IMG/VR virus record: IMGVR_UViG_2778261594_000007
Reading direction: 5' to 3' (one strand)
Length of the DNA stretch: 3,646 bases
Origin: a virus
Taxonomy: Duplodnaviria; Heunggongvirae; Uroviricota; Caudoviricetes
Part shown: one piece after another, positions 2,328 through 3,646 of the stretch
Layout: every line of letters begins with the position of its first letter
Numbering within the stretch: the first letter of the stretch is position 1
Translations under genes and position numbers: made by a program
Notes under the pieces: generated by a model
Told to the model about the DNA's origin: nothing
What the model saw: the letters and a program-made list of their open reading frames with translations, nothing else
Databases searched by the model: none

Positions 2328-2504
2328 TTATTCTTTTGATTCTATGCCGCGTTTATCCAACTCACGGCGCAAAAGCCTTTTTATCCATCCTGAGCGGTTA
2401 TCATCGCCATCTTCTTTCATGGCGATGCTTAAGCGTTCGAATAAGTCAGCATCAAGACGAAGCTGTACGGAAAACCTTTCCTTTTTGTTGTCATTGGTTG
2501 ACAT
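2328..2504 (-). CDS. Ribbon-helix-helix (CopG/Arc/MetJ-like) DNA-binding protein, 58 aa; candidate repressor of the element
   Basis: Translation verified codon by codon on the minus strand: MSTNDNKKERFSVQLRLDADLFERLSIAMKEDGDDNRSGWIKRLLRRELDKRGIESKE. It has an N-terminal alternating beta-strand (RFSVQLRL) followed by two helices, the RHH pattern. GAGG lies 6 nt upstream of the ATG. The longer track ORF (199 aa) extends upstream through low-complexity sequence and is probably not real. Confidence 0.65.
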   Translation of the reverse strand: MSTNDNKKERFSVQLRLDADLFERLSIAMKEDGDDNRSGWIKRLLRRELDKRGIESKE

Positions 2505-2526
2505 TGTATACCTCGAGTATAATAAT
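2498..2526 (+). promoter_or_regulatory. Candidate sigma70 promoter for the rightward small-gene operon
   Basis: Seen in sequence: consensus TTGACA (2498-2503); perfect TATAAT (2518-2523) at a short 14-bp spacing, or AATAAT (2521-2526) at 17-bp spacing. Predicted start near 2530-2535. Confidence 0.45.
2500..2512. repeat. Direct repeat copy 1 (GACATTGTATACC), putative operator half-site
   Basis: Seen in sequence: 12/13 identical to copy 2 at 2538-2550; overlaps the RHH start codon and the plus-strand TTGACA. Confidence 0.55.
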
Positions 2527-2630: not shown

Positions 2631-2831
2631 ATGGTTGCCGTAAATCATATACCACACCTTGTACACACACAAACGGCCTTTGTGTGGCGTTTTCTGGCAC
2701 TGAGTGCCGGAGAATCTCAAATCATCCACGTAACCGCCTGGACGGAACGCGAAGCGCGTAGCCGTTGCCCGTCCGGTTGTGTTGCTGTATTTGCCGCCCG
2801 TATTCGCCAGGGAGAAACCTATGCACAATAA
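2631..2831 (+). CDS. Hypothetical 66-aa protein, possible first gene of the rightward operon
   Basis: Strong SD GAGGAG (2620-2625) 5 nt before ATG 2631; stop TAA 2829-2831 overlaps the start of the next ORF by 11 nt. Caveat: the ORF contains a hairpin plus T-run (2666-2694) that could instead mark a structured leader. Confidence 0.35.
   Translation: MVAVNHIPHLVHTQTAFVWRFLALSAGESQIIHVTAWTEREARSRCPSGCVAVFAARIRQGETYAQ
2666..2694 (+). promoter_or_regulatory. Hairpin plus T-run: weak terminator or attenuator-like element, or protein-binding inverted repeat
   Basis: Seen in sequence: perfect 8-bp inverted repeat CACACAAA (2666-2673) / TTTGTGTG (2679-2686) with 5-nt loop CGGCC, then GCG and TTTT (2691-2694). 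The stem is AT-rich, so termination would be weak. Confidence 0.3.
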
Positions 2832-3060
2832 AACCACACCGGACGCAGCCGCCGCCGCGCTCACTACGCTGATGCACGCGCTTATTGATATTTCTGTTAT
2901 TGCTGACAGGGCGCATAAGCACGCCACCAGTGAAACAGAATATGCCGGGGCTTTCGTTCCTCATTCGCTGGCGGTTATGCAACTTAGTGCTGATATGGCT
3001 CTGAATGAGGCCAAAGCTATCCTGATTGCTGATTGTGAAAATGGGGGGGGTTATGCGTGA
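2821..3060 (+). CDS. Hypothetical small acidic, alanine-rich protein (79 aa)
   Basis: SD GGAG (2811-2814) 6 nt before ATG 2821; translation verified, ending CENGGGYA, stop TGA 3058-3060. Its stop overlaps the next ORF start (ATGCGTGA), suggesting translational coupling. Confidence 0.55.
   Translation: MHNKTTPDAAAAALTTLMHALIDISVIADRAHKHATSETEYAGAFVPHSLAVMQLSADMALNEAKAILIADCENGGGYA
3043..3050. repeat. G8 homopolymer tract at the junction of two ORFs
   Basis: Seen in sequence: eight consecutive G encoding the GGG of the upstream C-terminus and serving as SD for the downstream ATG 3053. Confidence 0.9.
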
Positions 3061-3274
3061 TGATCGTTTTAATTCCCTGAAACAGGAATTTTCCGGCGTT
3101 CCTGATGATGCGGCTGATGCGCTTTCGTCAATATCTGAAATTATGCGGGTGGCTTTTTTCTTTCTTTGCACTGATGAGCACAGAGATACAGGGCTAAATA
3201 TTCTTGATATTGCCGCTAACTATGCTGATTTCGTGACAGAGGTTATTTTAAGAAAAGCGACGGACGGGGATTAA
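3053..3274 (+). CDS. Hypothetical small very acidic protein (73 aa; about 15 Asp/Glu vs 7 Lys/Arg)
   Basis: ATG 3053 is 2 nt after the G8 tract; translation verified (MRDDRFNSLKQEF...KATDGD); stop TAA 3272-3274. The track's upstream start at 3026 is less likely than the SD-supported ATG 3053. Confidence 0.55.
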   Translation: MRDDRFNSLKQEFSGVPDDAADALSSISEIMRVAFFFLCTDEHRDTGLNILDIAANYADFVTEVILRKATDGD

Positions 3275-3275
3275 T

Positions 3276-3509
3276 ATGCGTGATATTTACCACGAAACAA
3301 CAGATCGCGTATTTCTTGCACTTTCTCACAGTGAAAATATGATGGAAATATTGCGCATATGGCTTGAAACACTTGGCGACAATGAACGCGACAAACAAAA
3401 ATCAAGAATTGCCACGGCATTAATAACGCTTCTTGAGCCTGTAATAAATGAGTTGCAGGAAATAGAGACATTACACGACCAGTATAAAGCGCCCCACACC
3501 GGAGAATAA
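3276..3509 (+). CDS. Hypothetical small acidic protein (77 aa), probably helical
   Basis: SD GGGGA (3266-3270) 5 nt before ATG 3276, which is 1 nt after the previous stop; translation verified (MRDIYHETTDRVF...HTGE); stop TAA 3507-3509. Uses several ATA Ile codons, suggesting foreign AT-rich origin. Confidence 0.6.
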   Translation: MRDIYHETTDRVFLALSHSENMMEILRIWLETLGDNERDKQKSRIATALITLLEPVINELQEIETLHDQYKAPHTGE

Positions 3510-3514
3510 AAATA

Positions 3515-3646
3515 ATGAAACTTAAATATTCTGGCTTAACTGCCAGTGGCAACACTCACCCTAAATTTACGCGCGGTGATATTTACCGCGACCAGTACGG
3601 CGGCACGGTAATGATTAAGGGCGTGGCGGGACGGTGCGTAACTTAC
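3515..3646 (+). CDS. Hypothetical protein, 5' part only (runs off the window end)
   Basis: ATG 3515 with GGAG (3501-3504) 10 nt upstream; 44 codons with no stop to the window end (MKLKYSGLTASGNTHPKFTRGDIYRDQYGGTVMIKGVAGRCVTY). Not in the ORF track because no stop lies within the window. Confidence 0.5.
   Translation, partial: MKLKYSGLTASGNTHPKFTRGDIYRDQYGGTVMIKGVAGRCVTY

Follow-up and report, generated by a model that had tools for sequence, protein, structure and literature searches.

The DNA analysed here, referred to below as the window, is a stretch of 3,646 nucleotides from the IMG/VR virus record IMGVR_UViG_2778261594_000007 (Caudoviricetes). Its feature of interest is a run of eight guanosines, GGGGGGGG, at positions 3043..3050 on the plus strand, together with the two small genes that meet at this run. 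The upstream gene, or N-half (2821..3060, +), opens with the ATG at 2821 and, in the G8 state of the window, encodes 79 amino acids (aa) that end in ...CENGGGYA, with a TGA stop codon at 3058-3060. It appears in the window's list of open reading frames (ORFs) and matches PHROG 5146 and the N-terminal part of PHROG 2512. The downstream gene, or C-half (3053..3274, +), also a listed ORF, is offset by one frame, starts at the ATG at 3053 and encodes 73 aa that match PHROG 24341 and positions 78-145 of PHROG 2512; in alleles with seven or ten guanosines, it forms the C-terminal domain of a 150-155 aa fusion. The start of one gene and the stop of the other overlap by 8 nt (3053..3060, +; ATGCGTGA), which, on comparison with relatives, is the canonical junction in this operon family, and the DNA around the run reads ...GATTGTGAAAAT GGGGGGGG TT ATG CG TGA TGA TCG.... 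A first-pass annotation, made from the sequence, had described the G8 run between two ORFs one frame apart, the CENGGGYA terminus and the start at 3053, and a fresh reading agrees with it exactly.

The two genes and the G-run at their junction

The run is the sole G/C homopolymer of six or more nucleotides within the window. In shuffles of the window that preserve dinucleotide composition, the expectation for G8 is 0.06 per shuffle, and at least one such run arose in 9 of 200. Based on the sequence, the lengths found in homologues and the computed anti-Shine-Dalgarno pairing, the G8 homopolymer is likely to combine three functions: it encodes the Gly-Gly-Gly of the upstream tail, is the predicted Shine-Dalgarno (SD) sequence of the downstream gene and serves as a hypervariable slippage site. 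The predicted duplex between the run and the 3′ end of 16S rRNA has an energy of −11.1 kcal/mol, the strongest in the operon, in which the other starts range from −6 to −8 kcal/mol; the mean over all ATGs of the window is −2.7 kcal/mol. This calculation supports the earlier proposal that the tract is the SD of the downstream gene.

The junction displays features of two different kinds of locus. As in translationally coupled genes, the upstream stop overlaps the downstream start, and the predicted SD lies inside the upstream gene. As in contingency loci, there is an uninterrupted repeat at which changes in length shift the reading frame, in this case G8 between ORFs that are one frame apart. 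Two further ORFs that cover the junction were considered as genes and rejected. The first is a reverse-strand ORF of 149 aa (2722-3171), for which there is no reverse-strand annotation in near-identical genomes, and the second is a TTG-initiated ORF (3026-3274) that merely extends the C-half frame upstream.

Length alleles, their products and their recurrence

Alleles of other lengths exist in nature, and they have the products that the first-pass annotation had anticipated, namely a fusion of about 150 aa upon loss of one guanosine and a short alternative tail upon gain of one. Among complete Escherichia coli genomes that are 98.7-99.6% identical over 541 nt, CP027461 carries G7 and has a single annotated protein of 150 aa (...CENGGVMRDDRFNSL...; WP_047086597.1), CP027586 carries G8 and has annotated proteins of 79 aa and 73 aa, and CP075632 carries G9 and has an 86-aa protein (annotated as ending ...GGGLCVMIVLIP; as computed from the window, ...ENGGGLCVMIVLIP; WP_045149701.1) together with a 73-aa protein. 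More generally, alleles with G8, G5 or G11 encode N, ending in ...GG(G)YA, and C as separate proteins with the overlap kept, and those with G7 or G10 encode an N-ENGG(G)VM-C fusion of 150-155 aa. Alleles with G9, G6 or G12 encode N with a nine-residue tail, LCVMIVLIP, after the glycine run, with a stop codon about 25 nt into the C gene. The C gene itself is not lost in these alleles, and the same 73-aa ORF follows the 86-aa protein of G9. Predicted anti-SD pairing is unchanged from G7 to G11, and tract length should therefore not tune SD strength, an effect that had been considered as a candidate and that this constancy speaks against. The earlier claim that length tunes both products is thus not supported as regards SD strength; it is the termination site of the upstream ribosomes that shifts with length.

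Tract lengths were compiled from metagenome contigs, found with a search pattern that admits any tract of at least five guanosines, and from IMG/VR loci, retrieved by peptide patterns distant from the tract; a pooled set combines these with complete-genome loci. Among 52 metagenome contigs from Illumina assemblies, G8 is modal (27 contigs), alongside G7 (10), G9 (12), G10 (1), G11 (0) and interrupted runs (2). The 57 IMG/VR loci with an N-Gn-C junction comprise 20 with G7, 16 with G8, 13 with G9, two each with G10 and G11, and four that are interrupted. In the pooled set (n = 114), the corresponding numbers are 32 for G7, 46 for G8, 26 for G9, three for G10, two for G11 and five interrupted, such that an uninterrupted run of G7-G11 is kept in 109 of the 114 loci. 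G8 is thus not fixed across homologous loci; it was a fixed G8, in all reads and loci and with two separately conserved ORFs and a conserved stop codon, that the first-pass annotation had named as speaking against its proposal.

The range broadens further with exact-sequence look-ups in a collection of 15 billion proteins, in which the N-half sequence is held fixed and the unit is the contig (counts that are inflated by clonal over-sampling and unusable as frequencies). The N-half of the window type is followed by G5 in 3 contigs, G6 in 2, G7 in 129, G8 in 523, G9 in at least 1000, G10 in 1, G11 in 36 and G12 in 2; for the N-half of the O157/EDL933 type, the numbers are 70 for G6, at least 1000 for G7, 912 for G8, 140 for G9 and 41 for G10. 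Each length from G5 to G12 is therefore present repeatedly in public, mostly Illumina-based assemblies.

These data bear on whether the G8 of the window could be a sequencing or assembly error, as the first-pass annotation had allowed, with a true tract of G7 (fused) or G9. Runs of eight G or C residues are classic sites of indel error, and the nearest complete genome (99.6% identity) has G7. However, the exact 79-aa protein of the G8 state occurs in 523 contigs and the exact 73-aa C-half in 918, G8 is the modal length in the Illumina metagenome assemblies (27/52), and it yields the canonical 8-nt overlap of the operon family. On these three counts there is nothing anomalous about G8, and an error at this position is very unlikely.

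Length has changed recurrently among close relatives. Over 6.5 kb, a US isolate of 2012 (L002) and a Swiss isolate of 2018 (L003) are identical except for one guanosine in the tract, G8 versus G9. The window and another near-identical locus (L001) differ as G8 versus G7, with 1 single-nucleotide polymorphism in 690 nt, and an O157:H7 locus with G7 (L007) has 690-nt flanks that are identical to those of a metagenome contig having G9. On a neighbour-joining tree of the 690-nt flanks with 51 tips, the Fitch minimum is 18 changes in tract length, compared to a mean of 22.6 and a minimum of 17 when tract states are shuffled, and the fused or split state changes at least nine times; tract length thus appears nearly unrelated to the flanking phylogeny. 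Tract lengths are unequal in 21% of the locus pairs whose 730-nt flanks show no difference; at one and at two flank differences, the share is already 91% and 77%, respectively, at or above the plateau of 72%.

Because length differs between loci whose flanks are identical or nearly so, the tract probably mutates orders of magnitude faster than the average site. A G8 homopolymer subject to replication slippage should change at such a pace, and no special mechanism is required. Length that is polymorphic among close strains, with recurrent independent changes, is also a property of contingency loci. The slip-strand switch that had been proposed from the sequence is therefore borne out, at the level of populations, in its variability, given lengths of G5-G12 on identical backgrounds and at least 18 changes, but not in an on/off function: all frames encode both halves, the downstream half retains its SD and ATG, and each of the three frames is common.

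Purifying selection is seen on N and C alike, whichever of the three states they are in. Of 110 complete homologous loci, 106 have an intact C-half ORF, and pairwise ratios of nonsynonymous to synonymous divergence (dN/dS) are 0.20-0.35 across both halves (N-half 0.23-0.29, C-half 0.20-0.35) within fused, G8-frame and G9-frame alleles alike. Gene decay, in which the split alleles are pseudogenised remnants of a dispensable 150-aa gene, could draw on the many fused 150-155 aa proteins in NCBI annotation, found down to 75% identity, and on the few loci with truncated C-halves. It is nevertheless extremely improbable in view of the 106 intact C-halves, the dN/dS of 0.2-0.35 in split states, the native split of distant relatives (see below) and the invariance of the junction, ATG and SD. 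No association was found between tract frame and the type of replication module, primase or RepA-helicase.

A few loci depart from the three standard products. The C-half is cut to 50 aa, ending in ...STGLMY, in the Shigella flexneri representative genome (L140) and in two further loci (L034 and L059), possibly at an insertion or deletion breakpoint. Larger fusions also occur: in three 224-aa proteins (P0058, P0060 and P0068), a further upstream small ORF is in frame with the N-C fusion, and a 167-aa protein (P0165) consists of the 121-aa protein of the L004 type, described below, joined to the C-half via a shared ...R(L/M)RDD... motif. From such ORFs, fusion and fission are apparently common along the operon.

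Probable ancestral layout, conserved junction and the case for a probably tolerated toggle

Similar comparisons can be extended to distant relatives. When 1.84 billion cluster representatives were searched exhaustively with HMMER, only 50 clusters (50% identity) were found. The divergent clusters, at 32-50% identity, are almost all standalone proteins, either N-only (73-84 aa) or C-only (75-77 aa), and the first residue of the C-only proteins aligns exactly with M78 of the fusion. Below 70% identity, just two clusters align over nearly the full length (155 and 141 aa), and a few more cross the junction in part. In PHROGs, too, N-only (5146), C-only (24341) and fused (2512) proteins are assigned to different families. 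The distant N-only proteins terminate in ...HA and a stop, encoded as CATGCnTGA, and the same CATGCnTGA ('...HA') junction is found at IMG/VR loci with other downstream genes, where the G-rich SDs are shorter (GGCGGGGGC, CAGGGGGTG, GGAGGTGG).

The frame of G8 matches the 8-nt overlap of these distant relatives, which lack the tract, and for this reason the two-gene layout is probably ancestral and the fusion derived. The G8 of the window looks like the canonical ancestral layout of two genes with an 8-nt ATGCnTGA overlap, and we conclude that the 150-155 aa proteins are likely to be recurrent derived fusions and the long G-run a probable expansion of an SD and glycine tail. The first-pass annotation had left it to a comparison of homologues whether the fused or the split form came first, and the comparison points to the split form; its further option of a true frameshift, with disruption of a gene, does not accord with a G8 frame that is the canonical overlap of distant relatives.

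The C-half is also found behind another gene. In L004 and L005, a different N-like gene of 121 aa lies upstream of the same C-half, and the junction, CAGGGGGGTAAACATGCGTGA, consists of G6 plus the same ATGCGTGA overlap. Most sampled complete genomes (about 16 of 19) have this G6 junction in the split frame, with occasional +1 and +2 variants, the latter annotated as one ORF. The second junction type, CAG-Gn-TAAAC-ATGCGTGA, which precedes the same C-half (L004/L005, 3485-3508; L141, from Escherichia ruysiae, about 2550-2572), has G6 in most E. coli, +1 or +2 in a few and G9 in E. ruysiae. Because this second type varies as well, G-run expansion at the SD of the C-half has happened more than once.

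Among 76 distinct haplotypes, there is next to no nucleotide diversity, even at synonymous sites, in the interval from about −14 to +41 relative to the tract (approximately 3029-3091). Further from the tract it reaches 0.3-0.4, and the island was measured outside the positions that the search pattern fixes. All 57 junctions defined by tblastn in IMG/VR are identical, even where the identity of N is 70% and that of C is 49%. Selection could have shaped the island by acting on the tract, the initiation region or a predicted hairpin; other possible causes are a recombination sweep or linker and reading in multiple frames.

Variants of N and C assort independently (N 100% with C 65%, N 75% with C 95%). 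Consecutive genes of the operon share the start ATGCGTGAT (M-R-D), at 3053-3061 and 3276-3284 in the window and at 3143-3150, 3501-3508 and 3727-3734 in L004, and upstream genes often end in ...CATGCnTGA ('HA' and stop). The repeated 8-nt start/stop junction, combined with the independent assortment of N and C, looks like a modular recombination linker between exchangeable cassettes.

The hairpin in question is a predicted local RNA structure (3045..3078, +; about −12 kcal/mol for G7-G9) in which the G-run pairs with AAUUCCCU and the AUG is enclosed. Conceivably, this hairpin might make downstream initiation depend on upstream translation. The 141-nt region is not more stable than its shuffles (z 0.74), and there is no covariation in what is an invariant segment.

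A hairpin just downstream of a G-run is one element of programmed recoding, by which ribosomal frameshifting or transcriptional slippage would produce the 150-aa fusion from a split allele at a fixed ratio, as for dnaX and the tail chaperones G/GT. A shift of −1 on G9 or +1 on G8 would reach the fusion frame, and SD-like sequences, of which the G-run is itself an example, can stimulate frameshifting. Programmed sites, however, are conserved in length and frame, whereas here lengths run from G5 to G12 and all three frames are common. In addition, the hairpin does not stand out from shuffles, G GGG GGG is not known as an efficient slippery heptamer, and slippage by E. coli RNA polymerase is documented for A/T runs. 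Recoding is thus highly improbable at this junction.

Overall, the evidence favours a toggle of gene fission and fusion that is tolerated over an on/off switch. The tract is probably a slippage-prone SD and glycine linker in the early operon of an element of the phage-inducible chromosomal island (PICI) type, and in this capacity would give rise to recurrent, tolerated fission and fusion of the two genes. Ancestrally, there would have been two genes with an 8-nt ATGCnTGA overlap, the G-rich SD of the second lying inside the glycine-rich tail of the first. This SD would then have lengthened in the present lineage to seven to nine uninterrupted guanosines, on account of which replication slippage would shift the run by ±1 far faster than point mutation could alter it. 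The ORF pair would be translationally coupled small genes in an operon that leads from an Icd-like gene via DUF4222 to a primase or RepA-helicase, and a change in G-length would move only the point at which the upstream ribosome stops. Since the second gene keeps a strong SD and an ATG in each state, both modules are probably still made, and toggling would therefore be largely tolerated and close to neutral rather than act as an on/off switch.

Several points weigh against this explanation. Uninterrupted runs persist even though a synonymous interruption by GGT or GGC is one step away, and G5 and G6 alleles are rare; persistent runs could reflect selection for mutability or for a long SD. All of about 20 sampled complete O157:H7 genomes have G7 and a single annotated ORF (as inferred from alignment spans). 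This speaks against very high switching rates at G7: either length does not change so fast as to scramble a clone, or selection favours fusion in O157:H7. Within-state dN/dS values cannot separate a situation in which both states are functional from one in which switching is too fast to leave a signature. Finally, besides the clonal over-sampling noted for the contig counts, some of the complete genomes are long-read assemblies and prone to homopolymer error.

The same persistence is the starting point for viewing the tract as an adaptive contingency locus. Selection would then keep the run long, and stochastic switching between separate and fused proteins, or in coupling and the N:C ratio, would be a form of bet-hedging for the satellite or its host, with a benefit in, for example, induction, replication control or helper-phage interference. 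In keeping with this idea, runs of G7-G11 remain uninterrupted in 109 of 114 loci although the coding sequence on either side has diverged at synonymous sites (dS 0.3-0.8), short and stable G5 and G6 alleles are rare, diversity is near zero from −14 to +41 versus 0.3-0.4 further out, and all three frames are frequent across many backgrounds. Yet no state abolishes either ORF, and the downstream SD and ATG are always kept. There is also no association with the type of replication module, the sampled O157:H7 genomes are uniformly G7, and the conserved island is equally explicable as a recombination linker between mosaic modules. Moreover, the related G6 junction is stable in the split frame, and a long run is therefore not needed for a working operon. 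Considering both sides, an adaptive locus of this kind is rather unlikely.

It is a doubtful proposition that the poly-G of a phage satellite is a selected switch that sets two helical proteins as separate, fused or alternative-tail forms and thereby creates reversible, heritable subpopulations. If true, satellite induction, replication licensing or helper-phage interference would vary between these subpopulations; the tract would be a bet-hedging switch based on a simple sequence repeat (SSR) in E. coli, the first in a PICI, and the invariant segment of about 55 nt would be maintained for switching.

With respect to the proteins themselves, an AlphaFold2 model of low confidence (pLDDT 62) has helices at 9-37 and 39-73 and then at 80-89, 95-115 and 118-147, with an ENGGVM linker between the two units. 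The upstream protein is thus predicted to be a helical hairpin followed by the C-terminal tail ...CENGGGYA, and two predicted helical units are compatible with modules that work either linked or unlinked. For the function of the N and C proteins, there was no match among Pfam, NCBIfam or PDB sequence profiles, and within PHROGs they fall only in families of unknown function (2512, 5146 and 24341). A tblastn search of the proteins against 50,697 phage genomes gave no match, Foldseek against the PDB returned only generic helical bundles (best E 0.23, uninterpretable), and Rfam contained nothing relevant. Paralogy of N and C was rejected (hhalign probability 0.3%). A protein-pattern scan of species-representative genomes revealed no relative, and a DNA scan of genomes found only Shigella flexneri, Escherichia ruysiae and one metagenome-assembled genome of Opitutales (L142, 2584-2603), in which the exact 20-nt match to ATGCGTGATGATCGTTTTAA is due to chance, with no homology beyond it. 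The family appears to be confined to Escherichia/Shigella.

The probable satellite operon and related systems

The window begins with a P4-type tyrosine integrase gene (1-1242), a small ORF and an AlpA-like helix-turn-helix (HTH) gene (1739-1945), after which come two leftward small genes, one of them ribbon-helix-helix (RHH)/YlcI-like. The first gene of the rightward early operon is Icd-like (2631..2831, +; NCBIfam NF033153 phage_ICD_like, E 6e-18), a label that it also bears in the annotations of near-identical genomes, and there is an 11-nt overlap between its stop and the next start. It is followed by the ORF pair, by a small gene for a 77-aa protein that begins MRD... (3276..3509, +; ORF list, PHROG 2196, annotations of L001-L003) and by the start of a DUF4222 gene at 3515. 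A promoter-like site, TTGACA-17-AATAAT (2498..2526, +; 11/12 in a consensus scan), could drive this operon, and the total of promoter-like sites in the window is not above shuffle expectation. In near-identical loci, the downstream part of the operon contains a primase or RepA-type helicase gene and then SSB and PerC-like genes.

The same organisation is known from Gram-negative PICIs, namely EcCICFT073 and the capsid-forming PICI (cf-PICI) EcCIEDL933 (PMC6092414; PMC11773190; bioRxiv 10.1101/2022.09.08.507074). Shared with these elements are the P4-type integrase, the AlpA-type HTH gene, the small early genes and, in near-identical loci, the primase or RepA helicase, PerC-like and SSB genes. 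Within this PICI-type gene set, the integrase domains are strong, the AlpA match lies below the Pfam cutoff (E 0.003), and the window stops before the replication gene. The best reading of the locus is as the likely early operon of an E. coli PICI-type satellite. For both EcCICFT073 and EcCIEDL933, induction by a helper phage and packaging have been demonstrated (PMC6092414; 10.1101/2022.09.08.507074). The ORF pair and the G-run are unmentioned in these PICI papers (PMC6092414, PMC11773190, 10.1101/2022.09.08.507074), and no mention of the tract in PICIs or E. coli prophages was found in the literature. Of 5426 complete E. coli genomes, about 900-1050 carry a homologous segment, and a single genome may have as many as five copies.

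The junction can be compared with three kinds of known system. Like the poly-G/C contingency loci of Campylobacter jejuni, Neisseria, Haemophilus and Helicobacter, it has an uninterrupted coding G-run with recurrent changes of ±1 on identical backgrounds, and the length of the tract decides whether the ORFs on either side are annotated as fused or split. Unlike those loci, it resides in mismatch-repair-proficient E. coli, where such loci are considered rare, its modal length is just 7-9, and neither ORF is silenced in any frame, given that the downstream half brings an SD and ATG of its own. The likeness to coupled overlapping genes (ATGA / ATGnnTGA) of phage and satellite operons lies in the ATGCGTGA overlap of the G8 state and in an SD within the last upstream codons, and 8-nt overlaps of the ATGCGTGA type recur at several junctions of the operon. 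What sets it apart from coupled genes is that the embedded SD is a long homopolymer, as a result of which the junction would be mutationally unstable and repeatedly yield in-frame fusions. With programmed frameshift sites (dnaX, IS3-family transposases, lambda G/GT), it shares ORFs one frame apart, a possible fusion, an SD-like element and a possible hairpin; in contrast to them, its length and frame are not conserved, it has no canonical slippery heptamer, and the change of frame takes place in DNA alleles.

That homopolymer slippage gives rise to split and fused gene calls is already known, and what is unusual is the setting in an E. coli phage satellite and the SD as the repeat. Frame switching driven by SSRs is considered uncommon in E. 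coli and, to our knowledge, no case of it is known from phage satellites. Public genomes hold, by the thousands, a natural allelic series from G5 to G12 in the early operon of islands of the PICI and cf-PICI type. At a minimum, variation in the tract accounts for the one, two or differently sized 'hypothetical proteins' that annotation pipelines list here, and the tract should not be 'corrected' in annotation. It also offers a clean natural example of recurrent fusion and fission through an SD that also codes for a glycine linker. Should the states prove functionally different, they would add a new layer of heterogeneity to conflicts among satellite, helper and host and would provide a handle on two uncharacterised but conserved satellite proteins.

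Other parts of the locus vary as well. Although both of its flanks are 97-99.7% identical to L001-L003, the segment 2335-2592 does not align to them. The segment, which resembles a swapped regulatory or immunity cassette, contains the 5′ portion of the leftward RHH/YlcI-like gene along with the promoter-like site (2498-2526) and a strong stem-loop (2568-2602). The stem-loop, which is GC-rich with 16 bp and has a terminator-like score on the minus strand, is flanked by the divergent promoter region on one side and the Icd-like gene on the other, and could be either a leader RNA structure or a terminator for leftward transcription from the early-operon side. In a close relative (H12, NZ_CP129259.1, 1760286-1761051; 98.3% identity), about 225 extra bases are found within the 541-nt query region along with one more hypothetical protein, and this is apparently a small-gene cassette that has been inserted near the tract region.

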